Assembly: GCA_010405405.1 (NCBI GenBank)
Contig: MU004231.1
Coordinates: 3,894,884-3,958,883, forward strand
DNA: 64,000 bases
DNA from: Microthyrium microscopicum
Lineage: Eukaryota
Reading direction: 5' to 3'
This document shows positions 14,293-37,511 of the stretch, one piece after another; position 1 is the stretch's first letter; each line of letters begins with the position of its first letter. A program made the position numbers and the translations under genes. Below the pieces are notes generated by a model. It made no database searches. It was given only the letters and a program-made list of their open reading frames with translations, and was not told the origin of the DNA.

Positions 14293-17200
14293 CTAGGAAA
14301 TAGTATCATCCGAATCATCCAACAAACTCTCTACCAGCGAATCTTCTACGTGACGCTTAGCAAGCCCAGTCATGACATCCACTTCCTCGCTATCATCGTC
14401 TTCATCATAATCATTGAACACCGTGCCTTCATGATCAGGCTTCGTGAGCATAGTGAGATCCGCTGTGTCAATGACATCCATCTCGTTCGCGTCTGGAATG
14501 TCCTCTGAAGCTTCTACTATTTCTTCCAAGGCCTCGGGAGTTTGCTCCGTAGACGATCTCACACCACTGTATTCCTTCTCATCTTCAGCCGGTGCATCTT
14601 CCTCCACGGTAGCCAGCAGCTTCGTGACCGAGGTTTGAAGCTTGGCAAGCGCATTGCGAGCAGAGGCTTCGTTGGCAACTCGACTCTCCAAAGCTTCAGT
14701 CAACAGCGCGGAAATAGTTTGAAACTCAGCAACAGGTGCCGTTGGACTGAGGTAGATTTTGCTGAAGATGGAGACGTAGTGTTTTCGCTCCTCTTTGTTG
14801 CAACCAGGCGAGAGAATCTTTTCCAGCGCCTCAACGACCAAGACGAGATGGCCGTCCAGTTCACCCTCAGTGATATCGTGACTGAGTTTGTCCATCATCG
14901 GTACGCATTTCCGTGGATCGGTCCAGTCGCACAGCTGCGCTACGACAAGATTTATGCCAACCATTTCTTCTTCTTCATCTAAATCTTCTGCTCGCTCAGC
15001 TAGAGTGTGTATTACACTGATGGCGACGCGAGCCATCGCTTCAGCGTTTTGGCGTTTGCTGTGACAGTAGACTGGGAGGAAGTATGTGAGAGCTTGTCTT
15101 AGACCTGGATTGCTTTGGGTTTCTGGGTCAAAGTAAGCTAGGATGAGCTGCTTGAGCAAGTCATTGTCCTGAATAGTTCCGGCCAACATCAATTTCGACA
15201 GCGAGATGCATCCATTGCTCTGGACGCCATTATCTGGAGCGCGAAGACTCTTGGAATACATCTTGTAGATTGGCTTGACCAGTGGATTTGCTCCAGCCTC
15301 CTGCTCAGGATCTGAAGCAACGGGCTGGGCCAGGAGAGATGGATGCCTTGTCAAGATATCAGAGATGATCTGGACTGCAATAATTTGCAGCGCTTCGTGA
15401 CCCTTTGCAAAGCAATGGAGGAACAAAGTGAGGTTCTCTTCGGCAAGATTCTGCTTCTGTTAGTGCATTGCTTCAGTATTATAGGAATCACATACCTTGC
15501 TTAACAGGCAGCAAAGACCAAGACATAGCAAACCACGTTCTCGAATTGGAGCTTCTTGACTTCGTACTGCTGGGACAACCAAGTTATTCAGCATAGTAAC
15601 AAGATGACTATTCTGCTCGAGATCGCATTGGACATTTTGCAACATGCACTGAGCAATGTGCAGGCATTTCAAGTTGACCATGATTTCTTGGTAGGCCTTT
15701 TTCTCATCAAAGTCCCCAGCTTGAGGAGTCTTTTCTCGGGATGGAGCCACGTCGGATTGTGCTGAGTGGAAACTGTCGTCTACATCCTCATTGTTCTGTT
15801 GCTGTTCCTCGCCAATGATAGTATCATGGACTTCAGCTACAGCTTCAAGAACAATGCTGCAGAATTCCTGCTCCCCAGCAATATCTTTACCACAAACGAG
15901 ACGTAGAGTTTCAACAACAAGCTTCGTACACTCTTCGGGTAAATCTGCCAGCGCAAGAGCTTCTCGCATTATTGAAAACATCTTACGACGACCCATCTCG
16001 TCTGAATAGTCGAGGGTTAACGCGATATGTAGAAGTTGCTCAACGCAGAATTCTTGCTGAACAGCATCCTCTTCCGCCTGTGCCTGCTGATCCGTAATAG
16101 CCTTTGCTTCATCGCAGTCTGGATCTTCGGCGTAGCTGTCCAGATTATCTGTCAGCTGTGACACCTTGGAAACCAGCGCCATTAGTTTAGCGATGTGTCG
16201 CTGGAGTAAGAATGCAAACTTGGTGACTTCGGGCATCTTGTCCTCGCGCATGCTTTCAAGAGCAGAATCACCCGAGTCTCGACAGAACTGGTTGAATGTA
16301 CGAGCAATAAACATGCTTTCGGCGGTAACATCCTCGAAGAAAGGGTCTTCGAATGTGACGTGGGCGCGATAATCAGGTCTACCGTCCCAAAATTGCTTCA
16401 TTGCATCGTGAGCAATTCCGCTCTCCCCTCCTGCATTCATCACGTCGATGCGCTCTAGTAGCTCAAGCAGGGCGTCCATGTTTGGATCGGACACCTTTTC
16501 TGGCTGTTTTGATTTTGGCTGCTCTGGTGCTTCCTCGACCTCGGCCTCAGCTGTCTGAGTCGACGCACAATCTTCGATCCAGCGTTCTCGGAACAATCGA
16601 GCTGTGGCTTTGCGGACGTTTTCATCACGATCACGTAATCCCCACCGTAGCAGCTTCTCTCGATGTTGCAGTGATAAATGACGGAAATCTCCAAGAGCTG
16701 GTAAAAGTCTTGAGTAAAGCACCCGACGAGTCGAAGCATCCAAATCTCGAGCCCGCTCTAGAAGATATGGTAATGTCGTCGGTGTGAAGGGCAGATTTAG
16801 CAGTAAGGCACGGCGGACTTCAGCGCTTGGATCGTGCTGAAGAGCCAGGAGCAGCTTGTTAAGAACTCCTCCTGCATCTTCGTCCTCGCTGTCTTCGTCT
16901 TCATCTTGCTCGTCTGTTTCCTCGGCAAGTCGTCCTAAACCGAGAACTGCTTGAACTCTGATATTGCTCTCTTTGTCCTTGAGTCTTCGTAATAGAGCGA
17001 GGCGGATGATAGCAAAGAGATCATCATCTATTGAATCCAATGTGTTGACAACGTGAGATATGATTTGAGTAGAACGGTATCGAACGACCTTGTCTTTGGC
17101 TTGACTGATCTGTAGAGTAAGGTTGAGAATATGTGAGGTAAGGCGACTCGTTGGTGTTTCAGGAAAACCGTCTGTTGCGTCGGCGTCTGGGTTGCGAAAA

Positions 17201-17697
17201 ATGGCGTTGTCTACACCTTGTCAGTTTACCGCTATTCTTGTCACTGAATGCAATTTACCTTTGTCCGAAGCATACTTGAGAAAGAAGCCTAAAAATCGAA
17301 CAAGCCGATCGCCGACAGATTCGCTCTTCTTGATAGAGAAGACGCGAAGAACACATCGCGATACCTCCTCATTGAAGTCGCTTTCATCGTAGTCGCGAGC
17401 ATCGTCAGCGAAAGCATGCTTTCTTGGGTTTGGGGTTTCGTAGCAGCAGAGTTCTTGGATTTTGCGCAGATTTACAGCAGACTTTCTTTGCGTAGTCACG
17501 CCCTTCTGCGCGTCAGAAAATGTTGTGCAAACACGCTCACGGAGCGATGTAGCGGGTCCTTCTTCCGGAATCTCAATCGCGTATGTCGAGGAGCGCGTCG
17601 AAGAAGCACGAGTCTTTGCGGCGGTCGATGTTTTTCGAGAGGTGGCGCCTTCTGCCTTGGCGGCACGATTTGCGCGTACAGACGGTCTTCCTGGCAT
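14293..17697 (-). CDS. YCG1: Condensin HEAT subunit Ycg1/Cnd3 (CAP-G)
   Basis: Exons 17697-17259, 17210-15496, 15450-14293. Motifs HDPSAEVRR, LLERARD, DYSDEMGRRKM, LRQALTYFLPVY. Confidence 0.93.
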
Positions 17698-28192: not shown

Positions 28193-29212
28193 TCATGACA
28201 TGTTTCGACGCCATGCCTTTATTGCGAGTTCTTGTATCTCACTGACACCAATCGCCCCTTTTCTGCCCTCATCTTCAACTGCCTCTACAACCGCATCGGC
28301 CACATCATCCGCTTTCAGAGGCTTAGTACCACCAGCTCCCATGAGTGGAGTCAATCGACCTCCAACTGCACTGTTTATTGCCGCAGCTACTGATGTTGCT
28401 GCTGCGAGAGGCATTGTAAATGTCCGTGACGAATCATACATGAACGGCGCTCGGATGAATACGCTCCTTAGCTTTGGGAAGGCCGAGGATATTGTGGACT
28501 CAGCCGCGCGCTTCGTAGTTATGTATCGAGCTGGTAGTACTGGGGCACCCTCGGCAGCGGAGATATAGACATAGGCTGGGACTGATTTTGAGACGGCTTC
28601 TCGAGCTAGAAGGATTGCTGCTTCTGGTCAGCGAAACACCCAACTACATACTGGAGCTTGCCTACCTGAGTCGCGGTTCATCAACTCATAAGTCAGTTGG
28701 CCATCATGTTCTTTGGGTTCGGCCGGAGTGCCCTCTTCTTGCTCCAGCGGATTTGTGTCCGCTCCTTGCTTGGCGCCGAAAGCTCTTGATAGACCACTCC
28801 ATATCGACTCTTTGCCTTGTAACACACCTTTGTAGTCTGCTTCGAGCAGAATTCCCATCGAGTGGACTACTGCATCTGCTCCGTCGAGATCGGAGATGTA
28901 TGTCGCTGGTTGAAGTATGTTTGCCTTTTGCCATTTGACTTGCTGGCTCCAGCTAGGCTTCTCGGGGGAGGAGGTTACGGTTGACCATTTCGGCTCGCCA
29001 GAGCGACTGTTCCCAGCTGTCAATATCGATTTGCTAGCTGGGTAAATATGAACTTGCCTAATTGATGTGACGTCCCATCCACGACCTACAGCTGCTTTGC
29101 AGATGCGACTTCCTACTTGGATGAGCAATTGAGCTTAGATCAGATGCATTAACGTACCGAGAAACCCGTTACCACCACAAACAACGAGCTTCTTCTTGAC
29201 AACTTGGGCCAT
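28193..29212 (-). CDS. COQ11: Mitochondrial atypical SDR, NAD(P)-binding (YLR290C/Coq11 homologue)
   Basis: Exons 29212-29158, 29112-29058, 29006-28666, 28617-28193; intron 2 is GC-AG. GGNGFLG, SISRSGEP, VVHSMGILLEADYK, RYITTKREAE. Confidence 0.88.
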
Positions 29213-29423
29213 TGATGAATGCTACATGGTAGAGAGCGTAAAAGCCGAGTCGGCCTGAACCAAACTCTCATCGTCATGAAAGTGGAGCTTGGACCATCTC
29301 GAGTTGAGCCGCATTTAACCTTGAAGATCTCCCGTGGACCCTCCCACTCCTCCCAACACCATCAACATTTCATGGACATTCTTCCCCACTATCAAAGTCT
29401 ACTCAAACCTCAAATTGCACAAT

Positions 29424-30274
29424 ATGCCTACTCCTCAGCAAAACAAGAGAGTCAAAGGCAAGCGGATAACTCGTGCATTTGGTAAGCATACCCCGCATGT
29501 CTTGCGACAACGACTCTCAGCTAACAAGTCCTAGTGATCGGTACTGAAGCCTGGAAACTCACTGACGCGAATCGACCCCCAAAAATCAAAACCGGCGATA
29601 CTACAGGCTGGCGTGTCTACGTTCGACCTGTTCCCGGCGGGCCAGATTTGACTGCATGGCTCAAGAAAGTCGTCTTCGTTCTGCATGAAACTTTTCCAAA
29701 TCCCGTGCGAAACGTTGAGAACTTTCCCTTCGAGCTAGAGGAGTCTGGATATGGTGGATTCTGGATCGTAGTCAAACTCTACTTCCAACCAATCTCTGGG
29801 GAGAAGCAACAGCAACGACAACACTTTCTACAACTCGATGCTTACGGCGACGAGGGATTACAAGCGGAGCAAGCTAAAACGGGAATTGTGCGCAGCGAAA
29901 TTGTGGAGCACATCGAGTTCACAGAACCAACTGAAGCACTATGGGAGGCTCTGACTAGCGAGACTCAATGGGACTATCTCAATCCAAGATCTAAAGGGAA
30001 AAACCGAGGAGGCATCCCCATGAGCCTGCCTGGACCTGGTGAACGCACAGTTGAGCTTCCAGCGTCAGCGCCCGCGGGCAGTGTCTACAGCAGAGAAACC
30101 GAAGAAAATCTCCTCAAGATGATAAATACGGCAGGGAGGAAGACAGAAGTTGAGACGGCAGAAACACTTCGAAAGACTAAAGAAATCAATGAGCAGCAGC
30201 TCAGAGCAAAGGAAGGTATCGATGTGGACTCCAAGCTGCTTAGTTTGCACGACAAACTTCCAGCAAAGAAATAG
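29424..30274 (+). CDS. YAF9: YEATS-domain protein Yaf9 (NuA4/SWR1), divergent
   Basis: Exons 29424-29481 and 29535-30274. KRVKG N-terminus, WRVYV, LKKV.F.LHETF, GYGGF, F.EPTE, C-terminal coiled coil. Confidence 0.85.
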
Positions 30275-30749
30275 AACGGCAGGCGGAAGAAAGATAGCCC
30301 TCCCTGGAATTTAGACTAAGATACCCAATTCATTGACTATTACATATTCACTCAGATGAAAGCTAAAACTCCGGACGTGGTACTAAAGTGATCAAGATAG
30401 CGATGGCAGGTACTACACTGGTACAGGTTATCAATGTTTGGAGGAAAGTCACCTGGCTGTACTCTACCTCTCTCTTGTGCTTGTGATTGTGTCAGTCAGC
30501 AGCCTACGTACCTTATAGGAGCTTTAAAACCTTTGGGTTGCTCAACTTGTTCCCTTTATTTACACACGCGCAAAACTTCCTAAATTCCGGTATTATTTAT
30601 TATTTGCACCTTCCGCACCCCCATCAATCAACATCATCAACCTCATCAACCTCGGCTGCCCTAGCGTCTCCAAGCTTCAACTTTCCAAGCATATTGACCA
30701 AAACCCAGCAACTACAGCATACTATTTGTTGGGTGAAAAGAAAGGCGAG

Positions 30750-32162
30750 ATGGGTAGGCCTATTGAAGAATTCAAGCGTCGCCTAGACCAGGCTACGGCA
30801 AGCAGTGGTCCTGATAACCTTGCTGGGACTGTTGTCATCGCAGCTACCGCCTCTGGTAAGATACTGCTCCGTTGCTTGACTCTTCACCCTTTTAATATTC
30901 GTATCAGGCGAAATTCTTCAAAAGGTGGAGTCTGGCACTTTTCTTCCACATCTCAAGAACCCAAAGCGCACAATAGACAAGTCCCGCCAAAACTTCTCTG
31001 CCGACACCGTTTGCTGGATTGCATCATGCACGAAACTCATGACCACCATTGCAGTCATGCAACAAGTAGATCGCGGCGTGCTGAAGCTGGATGACGATGT
31101 CACTCAGACCTGGCTTCCCGAGTTCAAAGACTACGACGTCTTGGTTAGAGGCCAAAACGACGGAGGCGAGAACCCAAAACCCACTACCAAAAAAATGAAG
31201 AACAGAATGACTCTACGGTATGTCACTATGCCAATCGCTTCCAATGTAGTTTATGTACTAATTGGTAAAGAAACCTTCTCAGCCATACCTCCGGGATCGC
31301 CTACGAATTCACTCAAATGGCCATCCAAAATTGGCGACAGTGGTCAGTCTCTACCCCAGAGGGCAAAGCAAATGCTCGCTCGCCAGACATCGCCCGTGCC
31401 ATGAAAGTACCCTTATACTTTGAACCATCAGAAGGTTGGGTCTACGGCTACGGAATCGACTGGGCAGGTCTAGCGCTCATGCGCGCCACCGGTAAAAACC
31501 TCGAAGAGCTGTTTTCAGAAAACATCTGGAAGCCACTCGGCATGACATCAACCACCTTCAGCGTGAAAGACCATCGTCCAGACTTGCTTGACCGCTTGAC
31601 GGCCATGAACATCCGCAATGGCGAAGGCGGACTCGACAATGCAGACAACGATCCAGTGTCACGCAGCATTGAGCGGGTTAAATATGGTGGTGGTGGGGGC
31701 TGCTATAGCACTGCAAACGACTATATCAAGCTCGTGGTGTCGCTGCTAAACACTGCTACTGGCCATTCTAGTGATGTGCCACAGCTGTTGAAGACGGCAA
31801 CAGTAAACGAGATGCTGACGGGTCAGCTTAGTGAGAAAGGTCTGGTTAATATCCACCGAATCACTGCCAACCCCATCGCATATGGTCTTGCTGGCAACCT
31901 GCCACCGTCGGTCAAGAAGGACTATGGTTTGGGTGGTATCCTGAACTTGACGGAAGTTCCGGCTACAGGACGCAAAGCAGGTGCTATTCAGTGGAGCGGC
32001 TTGCCAAATCTATTTTGGTGGGTTAGTCCTGCAGACGGAGTCGCGGGCTGCTACTTCACTCAAGTCTTGCCCCCTGGTGATAAGCCTAATGTCAAGATGT
32101 ACGAAGAGTTTGAGAAAGCTGTACTGGAAGAGCAGAAGCTTAGTCGGAAGGGTAAGCTTTGA
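30750..32162 (+). CDS. Beta-lactamase-fold serine hydrolase / LovD-like acyltransferase
   Basis: Exons 30750-30855, 30908-31217, 31271-32162. ASCTK (SxxK), LLSHTSG, WVYGYGIDW, WSGLPN. Confidence 0.9.
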
Positions 32163-32445
32163 GTGGTCTTGAGGCATGAACTTGGGGTGGATATAAAGTC
32201 TGGTGATTTTTTTTCATGAAAATGTATGATTACGTTGCGTGGGCAATAATTGTTCAGTTATATAGTAGATATTTATGGTACTGCGACTATACCATTGTTC
32301 CAATAGTAAACTTGAATTTGCCGCATTAGCTCTCCTTTGGTTCTGTCTCTACAGAACGGACAAACTCACCCGTCTACGAGCTTTCGAAATCGAATCTAGA
32401 TATGGTCTGAAAGAAAAACCCGTCGAACCCGGACAACATCATATC

Positions 32446-32934
32446 TCAATTCGAGTAGTCCATGTGCGTACGACAAGGCACAGCTGTGTGTCGACTTCCA
32501 CGTTCAAGCTCTAGAATGAAGCGATTATGGGATCTCATGAAACTCTGATCCATTGACGTATATTTTGGGTTTGGTTTGCCGCCCGATCTAGGATTCTCAG
32601 ATCGCTTCATTGTCTTTTCTTTGAAGTAATTGAGAGCCTCCATAAACGCTTCTGGATTCTTCCGATAATCTTCCTCAGTGATAGCAGAGCCCTTGACCAT
32701 TTGCGTCCATTTTGGTGGGAAGCCAACGAAAGCATCACTAAAATGCTGAGAAACGTCCCTAGTGTCCTCTTCAAATCCTCCTAGGCTTGAGATGTCGTGC
32801 CTTGCACTTTCTGGTTTTGAAATAGCTGGCTTTGGGTGAAGTTCTGCTTTTCGACGCGCGACTTCTTGCTCGTCGGAGCTCCTTGGTGCGGAACATGATC
32901 TTGGGCTTGACTTTAAGAATCGGCCGAGAAACAT
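32446..32934 (-). CDS. Stand-alone PAK (Cla4-like) PBD/autoinhibitory-domain protein with no kinase domain
   Basis: 162 aa ORF containing ISKPESARH...AFVGFPPKWTQMVKGSAITEEDYRKNPEAFMEALNYF...KRSENP. Confidence 0.7.
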   Translation of the reverse strand: MFLGRFLKSSPRSCSAPRSSDEQEVARRKAELHPKPAISKPESARHDISSLGGFEEDTRDVSQHFSDAFVGFPPKWTQMVKGSAITEEDYRKNPEAFMEALNYFKEKTMKRSENPRSGGKPNPKYTSMDQSFMRSHNRFILELERGSRHTAVPCRTHMDYSN

Positions 32935-33649
32935 CGTCGGTATAGCAGCAGCGTGATGGTGATAGCGTGCTCAGAATCTAACCAGTGGGCAAGAAATGTG
33001 GAAGTGGTTCAGGACTATTCTGGAGTGCCAGCGACAAGAGAAGTCTGCATTGGCCTACAAGTCAAAAGTGGAAGTAATGGGTTGACAGGAGGTTGGCCAA
33101 GACCTCCTTTCAGACAGAGGCTGTGCCTTTTGCAACCATGTTGACAGGCTGGCTCATCTCCATGGACTGATCTGGCTTGAGAGCTCCGAAAGATTGGACA
33201 CCACTGAATGCTTTTGCCATTCAAAGTCAATGATTTGCCTTGTACAAGTCTATCATAGATTCATGCAGTGCAACTCTCGCCTACCTAGGTATATATAATA
33301 ACACCAAAAACTGTATATGTTATCAGGCTGAGAATCCAGCCTAATCCTTGCTCTATCACCAACCCCTTGTCTTAAGCTCACGGTTCTGGATATCCTAGTC
33401 AATTCCAATCAACAAGCCAATCAACAAGGAAAGCAAAACAAGGTTGTATGCAACTTGACGTAGTTGAGCAACCTTTCGAAAAGTTACAGAAATCAAGAAA
33501 CTCTCGTGAAGGGTTCACGATTCTAATAAAAGCCTGGATCCTTCAAGAATTTGCAGGTACATACATCTATCAAAAAGCCCAAAATTACACACAACATCTT
33601 GTTCACAACAAACATACCACATATCAGACCGATCTACAACAAAGCCGAT

Positions 33650-34018
33650 ATGTCTGACGCCGTTCCCGTTCTTTTCACCATCAACGGCTCCTCCCGCCAC
33701 GAAGTCATTCTTCTTTCACCTACCCACGCCACTCTCGATGGCGTCGCCGCTGAAATTGCCCAACTTGCGAGCTCCTCGCCCAACTGCGCAGAGTTCATGG
33801 GCAAGTACAAGAAGAAGGGCGAAGACGGAGCAGAAGAGGAGGTCGAGGAGATCAGTGTGAAATGGAATGGACAAAGCCATGATCCCAAGATCTTTCCAGC
33901 AAGCACGTTGGTGACGAAAGACAACTTTGCGGCGATCATCAAGATGATTGGCGTGTCTGGTGTGGGGAGGGATACGTTACAGGTTAAGATGGGTCATGGG
34001 AATGCTGAGAAGAAGTAG
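33650..34018 (+). CDS. Small hypothetical protein (122 aa)
   Basis: ATG 33650, coding-like codon usage, globular-looking sequence; no family recognised. Confidence 0.65.
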   Translation: MSDAVPVLFTINGSSRHEVILLSPTHATLDGVAAEIAQLASSSPNCAEFMGKYKKKGEDGAEEEVEEISVKWNGQSHDPKIFPASTLVTKDNFAAIIKMIGVSGVGRDTLQVKMGHGNAEKK

Positions 34019-34365
34019 GGACAGATAGGAGGAAGGGATGGTATGAGCGGACTAAGGAGTTGGAATAAGTGTGTTATTAGTCTGTATTGATTGAATCACG
34101 ATTTCACTACTGCTTACTCATACTTGCAACAGGCTTGGGAGATAGTGATGTGGTAACAATATTTTGACTGACATTATACTGATGCCCAATACGAATACCA
34201 GAAGAAGGCTGTTGCCAACTATCTCCAACTAAACCCACTTCTCAGCAGGCCGATTACCGAAGATCAGAATCTATAGAAACTCTAGCGAACCATGCAAAAC
34301 AAATCATTCCTCCTCCAACGCCAAAGCTTTCCCAGTTGAACTATTGACATGCGTCGTCGTTTCAC

Positions 34366-35874
34366 CTACTGCAGCTCAAAAACATGCTGTCCATTCGCCT
34401 GTCTGGGCGCAGCATATGTAGTTCCTAGCTCGACTGGTGCAGGCGCGCCATTTGGTGGCCCGTTTGGTGCGCCGGCCTGGTGTTGAACTGGAACTGCAGC
34501 GTTCATGCCCGGGCTGGGCGGGAAGTTTTGATGTTGAACTGCGTTACCACCAGCTTCATACACGCCCGGAGGTGGGCTTTGCGCGGGTGATGGATGCGAC
34601 ATGGCAGGTGATGGGACAACACCGGCATTCGGCATTGGCGGTGATTGCGCTGGATTATATGCTGGAGCAGGCGAGTTAGGGATGCTGCTAACCACCGACA
34701 TGCGTGGGTCGAATTTGGCGTCCTTGGTCATCATTCCACCCTGCGGTGCGAAGTAGCCATTGTTCTGGCCATAACCTTGTTGTTGCTGGTTAGGATCGTA
34801 GCCCGGTTGACCCATCATGGGTGGTTGAACCATCTGAGGCACGCCATGTTGTGCCATGTTTGCATTAGGCGCATTGTTTTTGGCATTCCGCTTCTTGATG
34901 CAGAGGAAGATGACGGCGAAGACAGCAGCGCCAATGATCACAAGGCCGCCAATAATGCCTCCGACGATGGCGCCAACGCTGACCCCGTTCTTCTTTACTA
35001 TTGTGCCGTTGTTGGACGAGTTGGAGTTGGAGCTGGAGCCGGCGTTTGATGCAGTACCCGTGGCGCTGGCCACTGCTGATGAAGCAAAGCCTGCCGCGTT
35101 GTTCAAGCCATTGGTGCTCAGAATTAATGCGGCACTGGAACTTTTGGCCCCGGATGCTGTTGCAGCGCCAGCTCCGCTATCATACAGCGGACTCCAAGAA
35201 CGACCATCAACTTCTCCCGCGAAGGTTGTTTGGAACGTTGCGAAGGAGGCCGAGTATGTTGCGGCGCAGGAGTAGAATCCCATAGTCATGCCAGGAACGA
35301 GGAAGGAGTAGCAGTAGGGTTTTGTAGCGGCCGTGCTGTTTCAGTCAGAAAAGTTCCGATTTCGACCAATTCGCGGTACATACCACTTGATGGTGTTTAC
35401 GTCTGCTTGACAAGCAGCACCGCATAGCGAAGAAGAATAATAGCCAACACTACCGACACAATTTCCTTGGAATTGGCATGTTCCTGCAGCAGGATCGCAA
35501 CATCCTACGCTTGCGACACCTATTGTTATTGTTAGCGTTCAGCTCGTGCTATCATAACTATCTCGTAGATCGGCAAGCGTGGACTACGTACCGGCGACCA
35601 CCACCGCAGCACACAATTCGGTTGAATCGCAAGTCTTTGAAGATGCTTTGATGCCACTCACGTAACCGCAAGTATTATCAGGAGCATAATAGCCTAGTAA
35701 TGACCCAGACCCCGCTGCGCGCTTTAGGATATCAGGAACCATGGGCGCCGCCGTTGGAACCGGACTGAATCCCATAGCATTGGCGATATTATCTGTTGGT
35801 AGAGGAAGGGGAGCATTGAGAGCTTCCACCACCACTCCTCCGAAGGCAACGAGCCCAAAGAAAAGTTTGGTCAT
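34366..35874 (-). CDS. Type I membrane protein: signal peptide, Cys-rich ectodomain, S/A stalk, TM helix, Pro/Gln-rich tail
   Basis: Exons 35874-35592, 35519-35384, 35335-34366. DNTCGYVSG..GCCD..CGAAC..KCT..PYC; TM GAIVGGIIGG...CIKKR. Confidence 0.85.
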
Positions 35875-37511
35875 GTTCAGAACCTCACTTTTCCAAAACT
35901 ACTAACGAATGTGTATTTGAGCGACAGAATGTTGAAGAACGAGCGTGTATTGAACGAGAGACTAGAAGGAGAAAACACCAAAAGCAGAACCGAAAGAGTC
36001 AAAGACAGCCTGACCAGCACCACGAAGGATAAATACAACGGCCACACAATTGACTCCCCGTACCTGAATGAGGCTGAGTTCGCGCCTGGGCGCGCCATCG
36101 CTGGGCTCTCGTGTACAGCAAAAGTTGAGGGTAGGAGGTGCTCGAAAAGGGAAGGCAAATGGCTTTGTCTGGTCGAGGCGTTGGACGGAAAAACAAAGCA
36201 AGCAACTCTAGACGTGCAGCTGCAGGAACAGAAAAGCCCAAGTCTTTGGAAAGTGCACAATGGGGGAAAGGAGGCTGATTTCAGGGTGTATGATAGGTGC
36301 AGAGGTCGTCTAAGGGTCAAGCCAAAAGCTGTAGCGTGGTTGAATGGATGCCACTAAACCCCATATAGAATCAATATCAGGAGCTGGAAATTAGAAATTG
36401 GCGAGTTTGTGTCCGCACCGAACCTTCAACCGTCTGCGCCAAGTCGAGGGATTTGACCGACTCCGTGGAGGCTCGGTGAAGACAATCTAGCAGTTTGCTT
36501 TTTCCAGAATCCAGACTCAGCTGAGAATCAGTGTTGTGTGAAACCATTACACCAATCCGAGTTCACCTACCAATGCATAACCTTTGTACCATTGTGACAC
36601 GAAAATAAAAGTACTTCGGGATTTTCCTTGCACAGGTTTCTTTCTGTGTCGATCGGTCGGATCAAGTCTTAGGTACCGCACTCATATCTTGTCTGTATTC
36701 TCTAGCTCCTATCCATGAGACAAGATGAATGACATTCTCCGTCCTACCTGTTATTAACGCGCTGATTTGAAGATGTCGAATATTACAATGCAATCGATGG
36801 TTCTAAAAGATTTAGACTTCTCTCAAGGAAACGAAACCGTCGATGGAAAGCGTGTTGTATACTGGACATGAACTCAGTCGAATCTTACTGTGTTCACTGC
36901 TGCTGCAACTATCTCGTCTATCTATACTCTTCATTGCTACAGTACCTAGCCTTCCTGAACAAGAATTGCCCCTTTGGCTCGGTCTGTCATAGCCATCGAA
37001 AACTATGCCAACGGCGTCAGCAACAGTACCGACAGGAAAGAGGCTTCGAAGCTTGTGGTCAATTGCCAATTCGACGGAGACGACCTTACCTCTAAATCTT
37101 ACAGAGCTCCGGTTGAACTGTTAGTTCGCAATGGAGAGGGACAACCCAAAACAAATATAATTGACAAGATGATAACTCATTGACTCGATATGCCAACCAC
37201 GAGCAGTTATAGGGTACACAATTCGAACAGCGAAACTGCAGCAGAGTCTTGGTCCAAAGCTTGACTCTAACCGAGTTGCTTTTCAACCCTATTCTTCCTA
37301 TACCATATGATTTATTGTCTATGCAAGCTTGTTTCGCACAGTTTAAACAAGAACTGACCATAGATGACCAATTGTACACTATTAAGACTTGAGTTAACAA
37401 TCGTCCTAAGCAGTCCGAGCAACCAAACTCGAATTCTTGCGACATGGAGGAGAATAAGATGACCATATTCTTCAAAGTTCTGCTACAACAAAGTTTTCAA
37501 AATTACTAGCA

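Follow-up and report, generated by a model that had tools for sequence, protein, structure and literature searches.

Autoinhibition of p21-activated kinases (PAKs) is relieved by Cdc42/Rac, and the isolated autoinhibitory fragment of these enzymes has long been used in cell biology as an artificial inhibitor supplied in trans. Here, we describe a gene of the fungus Microthyrium microscopicum that encodes such a fragment by itself: an intact 162-codon open reading frame (ORF), P0001, which runs from ATG to TGA on the minus strand at 32446–32934 (stop included) of the window, that is, of the whole 64,000-nucleotide stretch analysed (contig MU004231.1, positions 3,894,884 to 3,958,883). A preliminary description of this ORF, the sequence of which is identical to that first quoted, proposed that it encodes a kinase-less inhibitor of the PAKs Cla4 and Ste20, or else a decoy for Cdc42. 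We put at roughly 0.4 the probability that P0001 acts as a damper of PAKs in trans, a role in which it would bind the kinase, inhibit it and be insensitive to GTPases.

Inhibition in trans is described for group I PAKs, the autoinhibitory domain of which contacts the catalytic domain, and a typical CRIB motif and autoinhibitory domain are attributed to yeast Ste20, Cla4 and Skm1 (both in the available part of PMC3490964); in PAK1 these elements are placed at residues 75–90 and 83–149, respectively (PMC11852631, in its available part). The Cla4 of Ustilago is reported to be constitutively active when it is devoid of the inhibitory CRIB domain (PMC3164470, likewise in part). The autoinhibitory domain of PAK1 (structure 1F3M) is homologous to the switch of P0001, for which docking on the kinase C-lobe is predicted here, but P0001 differs from it in being a separate natural gene, in missing the CRIB histidines, in having no evident cleft-blocking segment and in carrying novel tails. 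In sequence, P0001 is closest to the p21-binding domain (PBD) of fungal Cla4-type PAKs, with a similarity that continues into a K-R-x-E-x-P stretch; it has, however, neither the PH nor the kinase domain of these proteins and its CRIB is degenerate, whereas Cla4 loci retain the kinase wherever they are informative (70 of the 80 analysed).

Two further classes of small proteins invite comparison. Yeast Gic1/Gic2 and the plant RICs are small kinase-less CRIB proteins, in which an intact CRIB binds the GTPase and no inhibitory switch is present. P0001 is likewise small, non-catalytic and based on a p21-binding region, but it is the reverse of these proteins, with the switch kept and the CRIB lost. 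MicroProteins, such as the Id proteins and LITTLE ZIPPER, are small one-domain paralogues of multi-domain proteins, which they titrate, mostly through transcription-factor dimerization. P0001 fits this concept in its size, its single domain and its homology to a larger regulator, from which it is derived and which it is predicted to bind and titrate, the difference being that it is built from the autoinhibitory module of a kinase.

The protein inhibitors of PAK1 (CRIPAK, Merlin, Nischarin, which binds the kinase domain, PAK1IP1 and SKIP) are described in the available part of PMC11852631 as larger, with other domains, and not as copies of the PAK regulatory region. The results of a full-text literature search contained neither a natural gene for a kinase-less PAK autoinhibitory domain nor a microProtein made from an autoinhibitory module, and phrases of the 'CRIB-only' type are absent from PMC8847673. 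The loss of the CRIB through intron retention that is proposed for Trichophyton STE20 (PMC6274995, in the part available) is a different, indeed opposite, mechanism.

The inhibitory switch and its origin

The Pfam profile PF00786 (PBD) matches P0001 with an E value of 3.9e-07 and 30.7 bits, against a curated gathering cut-off of 21.3. The alignment is limited to residues 66–103, corresponding to profile positions 20–57 of 59, i.e. to the inhibitory-switch half of the domain, while positions 1–19, on the side of the CRIB core, are left unaligned. The domain core (residues 67–113; 32596–32736, minus strand) is delineated by this profile, by a match to the autoregulatory fragment of PAK1 (1f3m_A; E 5e-06, without gaps across residues 47–113), by helices predicted with AlphaFold2 (AF2) and by the predicted interface with a kinase. 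The PAK switch that the preliminary description had seen in this ORF is thus present, and the assertion that it is well kept agrees both with the extent of the Pfam alignment and with the retention of 12 of 18 conserved columns.

The ORF stops at 162 residues with no C-terminal Ser/Thr kinase domain, leaving one PBD-derived domain; a PH domain is matched neither by Pfam nor by tblastn, and MAFFT suggests no more than a trace of its final helix. When the full-length Cla4-type PAK P0004 was compared with the window by tblastn it matched at 32730–32566 (49% identity over 57 residues, E 1.9e-13), and three full-length PAKs (E ≤ 1) all matched the PBD alone, with no relic of a PH or kinase domain in the 64 kb. 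Kinase and PH families are also absent, by Pfam, from the neighbouring ORFs, which belong to beta-lactamase-like, YEATS, ferric reductase, TrkH, condensin Cnd3 and PALP enzyme families. The earlier observation that no such domain lies nearby accordingly extends to the whole window.

A HMMER search of 1.84 billion representative proteins (E ≤ 1e-3) returned 76 matches, among which P0001 alone lies below 1e-10 and the next best reaches 4.4e-08; the 75 non-self matches fall essentially within residues 63–136. The relatives are PAKs of 500–870 residues: a PBD is present in 76 of the 76 rows, a kinase domain in 35 and a PH domain in 30. The closest in sequence are Cla4-type PBDs, with 45–50% identity over about 55 residues. 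In an alignment-based metagenome scan, 318 of 571 stretches encode relatives, and the best 80, which were analysed, are all Cla4-type and at most 50% identical to P0001; the single pattern used cannot match the variant of P0001 itself and favours canonical Cla4, and the scan is therefore no test for orthologues. In these best 80 PBD loci, a PH domain lies upstream in all 66 that have at least 900 nucleotides of upstream sequence, and a kinase lies downstream in 70, the remaining ten having a downstream flank of at most 820 nucleotides. Because the PH domain precedes the PBD in every informative metagenomic relative, the domain of P0001 derives from a Cla4-type (PH–PBD–kinase) gene. Among the loci examined, with a pattern that favoured canonical Cla4, the kinase-less state is unique to this window.

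The similarity to Cla4 extends beyond the Pfam model, through the post-switch K-R-x-E-x-P stretch, to about residue 130. The post-switch segment (residues 114–130; 32545–32595, minus strand) contains an insertion relative to Cla4 and is still alignable, phmmer and BLAST matches reaching residues 123–131. On the N-terminal side, MAFFT places the predicted helix 22–32 against the final helix of Cla4's PH domain. Since the similarity runs from this PH helix to about residue 130, the duplicated piece probably spanned about 110 codons, and neither of the two length differences from Cla4 shifts the frame. No detectable relative was found for the N-terminal 37 residues taken as a segment (32824–32934, minus strand), of which the first 20 or so align with nothing, nor for the last 32 residues, which form the C-terminal tail (residues 131–162; 32449–32544, minus strand). 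Exon limits of Cla4 could not be recognized as borders of the fragment in seven metagenomic loci, which gave single or near-single high-scoring segment pairs and were uninformative. P0001 is very probably a real, transcribed and lineage-restricted gene that was born by partial duplication of cla4.

The degenerate CRIB remnant occupies residues 38–66 (32737–32823, minus strand) and can be aligned in two registers, ISKPESARH and ISSLGGFEE. In the MAFFT register, ISKPESARH (residues 38–46) falls on the CRIB at the expense of 2 + 8 inserted residues, retaining I, S, P, the first H and G and losing F, the second H and V. In the HMMER register, which places residues 47–113 gap-free along the PAK1 fragment of 1F3M, it is ISSLGGFEEDTRDV that falls on the CRIB; the residues retained are then I, S and F alone, both histidines, the proline and V-G being gone. 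The full core I-S-x-P-x2-4-F-x-H-x-x-H-V-G is absent from P0001 in either register, the consensus of the relatives being VSNPTNFxHxVHVGFD. The CRIB is consequently as degenerate as had been claimed, while the specific form given to it, ISKPESARH with an insertion and loss of the second histidine, is one of two possible registers. Two adjacent ten-residue units (I-S...H-D and I-S...E-D; residues 38–57; 32765–32823) are identical at 15 of 30 nucleotides, a level that is reached by 179 of the 18270 adjacent 30-mers in the window; an old, diverged 30-nucleotide tandem duplication would explain the two registers, for which this identity is suggestive only. Both CRIB histidines are needed for GTPase binding, and a PAK1 double histidine mutant fails to bind GTPases. 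As the motif has decayed, P0001 is likely to have lost the binding of Cdc42/Rac.

No orthologue of P0001 was found among the 1.84 billion representative proteins. A length-matched protein search recovered P0001 itself as the sole match among seven candidates, and a metagenome scan with P0001 matched 117 pattern stretches, none of which was confirmed. As a control, the adjacent gene for a 122-residue protein without Pfam match has 26 relatives in a like search, the closest being metagenomic and 73–74% identical and the named ones being Dothideomycetes proteins with 42–46% identity; moderately close sequenced relatives therefore annotate the neighbour, but not P0001. The ESM Atlas contains the P0001 sequence, and its nearest clusters there are PBD-only at a score of 0.88, under the trusted level. 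Structure matches from the same resource, with template-modelling (TM) scores of 0.17–0.35, were discarded as meaningless.

Transcription and signs of selection

Two sequencing runs were compared over 29000–37000. The kind of run X5 is uncertain on record, and it was recognized as complementary DNA (cDNA) because its contigs omit six short GT..AG / CT..AC introns across this region which the gapless DNA contig of run X1 retains. A single X5 contig spans 30578–33025 and follows the genome colinearly over the whole of the P0001 ORF, up to 33025. It shows two plus-oriented introns, which belong to the beta-lactamase-like gene, and, at 32310/32370, one junction of minus orientation. The locus is thus transcribed, which answers the question of expression raised in the preliminary description. 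The strand of the transcript was inferred from splice-site orientation alone, as the contigs give no RNA ends, strand or level; contig ends were not taken as RNA ends, so that 33025 is no proof of a transcription start, and neither the stretch 33026–33617, which X5 leaves uncovered, nor read depths were used.

The spliced minus-strand RNA opens with a leader of 91 nucleotides (32935–33025), which reaches the end of the cDNA contig and contains no ATG; the P0001 start codon is the first ATG, has an A at −3 and begins the longest ORF of this RNA, the others measuring 41–42 residues. Downstream of the stop codon, the first 76 nucleotides of the 3′ untranslated region (UTR; 32370–32445, minus strand), defined by the cDNA contig and the sequence, are followed by a 59-nucleotide intron (32311–32369; GTGAGT...CTAAT...AAG, with CTAAT as a branch-like site) that is removed in the cDNA contig and kept in the DNA contig. 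The P0001 and beta-lactamase-like transcripts are convergent and overlap or abut at their 3′ ends between 32162 and 32310. P0001 is presumably translated from this RNA.

The codon score of P0001, 0.189 bits per codon, is the highest of the six frames. It compares with a mean of 0.168 (standard deviation 0.076) for 70 coding pieces of long ORFs in the window and with a mean of 0.017, a 95th percentile of 0.162 and a maximum of 0.196 for 22 shadow ORFs; the N-terminal 37 codons, although without relatives, score 0.203.

Substitutions were examined in a 47-residue switch block, which is gap-free in 12 of the 75 relatives, the six closest of which were used. The mean BLOSUM value of the mismatches is +0.21 to +0.46, against about −0.65 (standard deviation 0.3) for simulated neutral drift to equal identity, and the observed conservativeness is reached in only 0–5 of 1000 simulations per relative. 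A second test was restricted to the 18 columns that are at least 90% conserved among the relatives, in which the ancestor is not in doubt: 12 are retained, and the six changes are all hydrophobic for hydrophobic (L>F, L>M, L>V, V>F, F>Y and Y>F), with a mean BLOSUM value of 1.33 against a neutral expectation of −0.55 (1.33 is reached in 42 of 5000 simulations). After comparable neutral divergence, the fraction of simulations in which the frame is still free of stops falls from 0.19 over 57 codons to 0.07 over 84. No signature of repeat-induced point mutation (RIP) was found, TpA/ApT being 0.5 and (CpA+TpG)/(ApC+GpT) 1.43, similar to the window. According to these simulations the switch domain does not appear to have drifted neutrally, contrary to what had been named as grounds for rejecting a function. 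Taken together, the tests favour past purifying selection on the fold, and are not proof of a present function.

Predicted action on the kinase and rival explanations

We propose that part of a Cla4-type PAK gene, reaching from the PH domain's end through the p21-binding/autoinhibitory region, was copied into a new location flanked by a beta-lactamase-like gene and a small conserved gene, where the copy would have become a separate transcribed gene of 162 residues. It would have preserved an inhibitory-switch (IS) domain capable of folding, lost those CRIB residues that Cdc42/Rac binding requires and acquired novel N- and C-terminal tails. The free IS domain may then bind in trans to the C-lobe of Cla4, and perhaps to that of Ste20, at its alpha-G / P+1-loop face, in the manner of the cis/trans autoinhibitory domain of PAK1. 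Devoid of a working CRIB, it would not be dislodged by GTP-bound Cdc42/Rac, and the outcome would be a dose-dependent, GTPase-insensitive PAK damper, a regulator of the microProtein type. It is a tentative suggestion, with the odds somewhat against it, that P0001 is a natural 'PAK inhibitory domain' gene whose product clamps the C-lobe of Cla4/Ste20 beyond release by Cdc42/Rac, and that it would be the first microProtein made from a kinase's own autoinhibitory switch.

Using the alignment of 76 rows, AF2 gave a mean predicted local distance difference test score (pLDDT) of 66, with helices 74–81, 87–92 and 94–113 in the switch at 81–87 and a disordered CRIB remnant at about 45; extra helices are predicted at residues 22–32 and 124–149 (pLDDT 66–80), the latter including most of the C-terminal tail (66–78). 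A complex was modelled from residues 36–135 of P0001 and the Cla4 kinase domain of another fungus (P0033, residues 518–829), with no alignments. The kinase domain of P0004 was left out of this model because some 17 additional residues immediately precede its catalytic-loop region; these resemble an unspliced intron in the deposited gene model. The complex scored 0.67 (0.67, 0.61 and 0.67 in the individual runs), against 0.00 for the best of three controls, and the runs share at least 63% of their contacts with a partner pLDDT of at least 51. The mark applied is reached by 51 of 78 solved complexes and two of 108 mismatched pairs, and, for eukaryotes, by 39 of 65 solved pairs without a like older complex and two of 126 unrelated pairs.

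The predicted interface joins P0001 residues 80, 83–85, 89 and 92–107 to kinase residues 714–715, 725–727 and 757–767. On the kinase side it comprises the P+1-loop residues MVG together with the EPLKALYLIAT helix, i.e. the alpha-G face of the C-lobe, which we take to be the face used by the PAK1 switch domain, and on the P0001 side it largely overlaps the columns that are conserved in the family.

A number of points weigh against a role as PAK damper. The docking result may be a memory of the solved autoinhibited structures of PAK1/PAK2 (1f3m, 9m41 and 9lbf); it would show likeness rather than binding by this copy, as the kinase comes from another fungus and the model holds no affinity information. 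Confident contacts end at residue 107 and nothing is confidently placed in the catalytic cleft, so that the model does not decide between inhibition and mere tethering. PAK1 autoinhibition uses a cleft-blocking lysine, of which P0001 has no evident counterpart, and in the first switch helix P0001 has M79 and V80 in place of the two leucines that are near-invariant, V80 being the counterpart of PAK1 Leu107, the mutation of which activates PAK1. The likeness of the monomer model to known structures is weak: 1f3m_A (PAK1) and PAK2 rank top against the PDB with a Foldseek E value of 0.97, and VIA-align superposes 55 residues on 1f3m_A with a Z score of 2.2 and a root-mean-square deviation of 7.8. 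Part of the conservativeness of the switch block could reflect how far the Cla4 proteins have diverged from one another; the excess of conserved over variable columns kept (12 of 18 against 11 of 29) is not significant (Fisher p 0.075), and the last 32 codons carry no coding signal (codon score −0.03). Conservation between species, the usual proof of function, did not emerge from the protein and metagenome searches. Finally, introns located beyond a stop codon are known to trigger nonsense-mediated decay, and the one in the 3′ UTR could make the P0001 mRNA a target of this process, which counts somewhat against a robustly made protein.

The kinase-less inhibitor in trans that was originally envisaged finds partial backing in the anatomy of the gene, its transcription, the non-neutral switch and the modelled docking. 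The modelling with a Cla4 kinase, which had been suggested as a check, places the switch on the C-lobe with clean controls; this docking, however, may echo the solved PAK1/PAK2 complexes and concerns the kinase of another fungus. The accompanying suggestion of a 'new layer of polarity control' claims too much for a gene known from one genome.

The strongest competing explanation, which we consider somewhat less likely, is that P0001 is a young transcribed relic, a fragment of cla4 that came to lie beside a bidirectional promoter and is open through luck and recent origin, its protein being absent or present in traces and inert. The occurrence in one genome, the exposure of the mRNA to nonsense-mediated decay, the decayed CRIB and the non-coding-like tail would all be expected of such a relic; the survival of a stop-free core through neutral divergence is not very improbable either, and the contrast between conserved and variable columns falls short of significance. 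On the other hand, a relic would hardly account for substitutions so conservative that neutral simulations seldom attain them, nor for codon usage that matches the average of real genes and scores higher in this frame than in the other five. The in-frame length differences from Cla4 and the lack of a RIP-like composition also speak against decay, and with a divergence of about 50% from every Cla4, the copy is not likely to be very recent.

A functional RNA is improbable. The minus-strand transcript converges with the 3′ end of the beta-lactamase-like gene and might exert its effect as antisense RNA or through transcriptional interference, an idea favoured by the one cDNA contig that joins the plus-strand gene, with its two GT..AG introns, to the minus-strand junction across the overlap or abutment at 32162–32310, and by the position of the P0001 intron after the ORF. 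Convergent 3′ overlap is, however, common in compact fungal genomes, and this explanation leaves the coding-like codon usage and the conservative substitutions unaccounted for.

It is similarly improbable that P0001 binds something other than the kinase C-lobe and activates or relocates PAK, for instance by displacing the resident switch from the PAK regulatory region, or by recruiting a partner through the flanking helices 22–32 and 124–149. These helices, predicted at a pLDDT of 66–80, have no relatives, which counts in favour of this idea, but no other partner is in evidence and the only one modelled, the kinase, scored well.

Least probable is a decoy or adaptor in which the CRIB remnant and the first part of the switch would bind GTP-bound Cdc42/Rac and compete with its effectors: small kinase-less CRIB proteins such as Gic1/Gic2 and the RICs do form a known class, and I-S persists together with either P..H or F depending on the register, but the gap-free register is without both histidines, the proline and V-G, the gapped one is without the phenylalanine, the second histidine and the valine and has ten inserted residues, the first 19 profile positions are unaligned by Pfam, and loss of the two histidines abolishes GTPase binding in PAK1.

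Neighbouring genes and biological meaning

On one side of P0001 lies the gene of the beta-lactamase family (serine hydrolase-like; 30578–32162, plus strand), with introns at 30855–30906 and 31217–31269 that are supported by cDNA joints. On the other side, the gene for the 122-residue Pfam-less protein (33650–34018, plus strand) is divergent, starts some 700 nucleotides from the P0001 start codon and is covered by cDNA. It is followed on the minus strand by a gene of three exons (34366–35874), with introns at 35336–35383 and 35518–35589 defined by cDNA joints, the product of which combines a start resembling a signal peptide with a stretch rich in Ser/Ala, one hydrophobic segment and a tail rich in Pro/Gln/Asn; its match to Podoplanin is sub-threshold, and by appearance it is a mucin-like membrane protein. 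Farther away, the condensin Cnd3 domain (14296–17220, minus strand) is divided between two ORFs of the same frame with a break at 15460–15462, the simplest reading of which is a short in-frame intron with a stop.

The scope of any conclusion is set by a gene known from one genome only and by a function predicted from models. If P0001 does act as a GTPase-insensitive damper, PAK output would be set by the level of P0001 and not solely by GTPase loading, and kinase regulators would be able to evolve by copying the brake of the kinase itself. The gene would then represent a clear case of gene birth through partial duplication, and research on fungal polarity would gain a ready-made PAK inhibitor that is genetically encoded and independent of GTPases.

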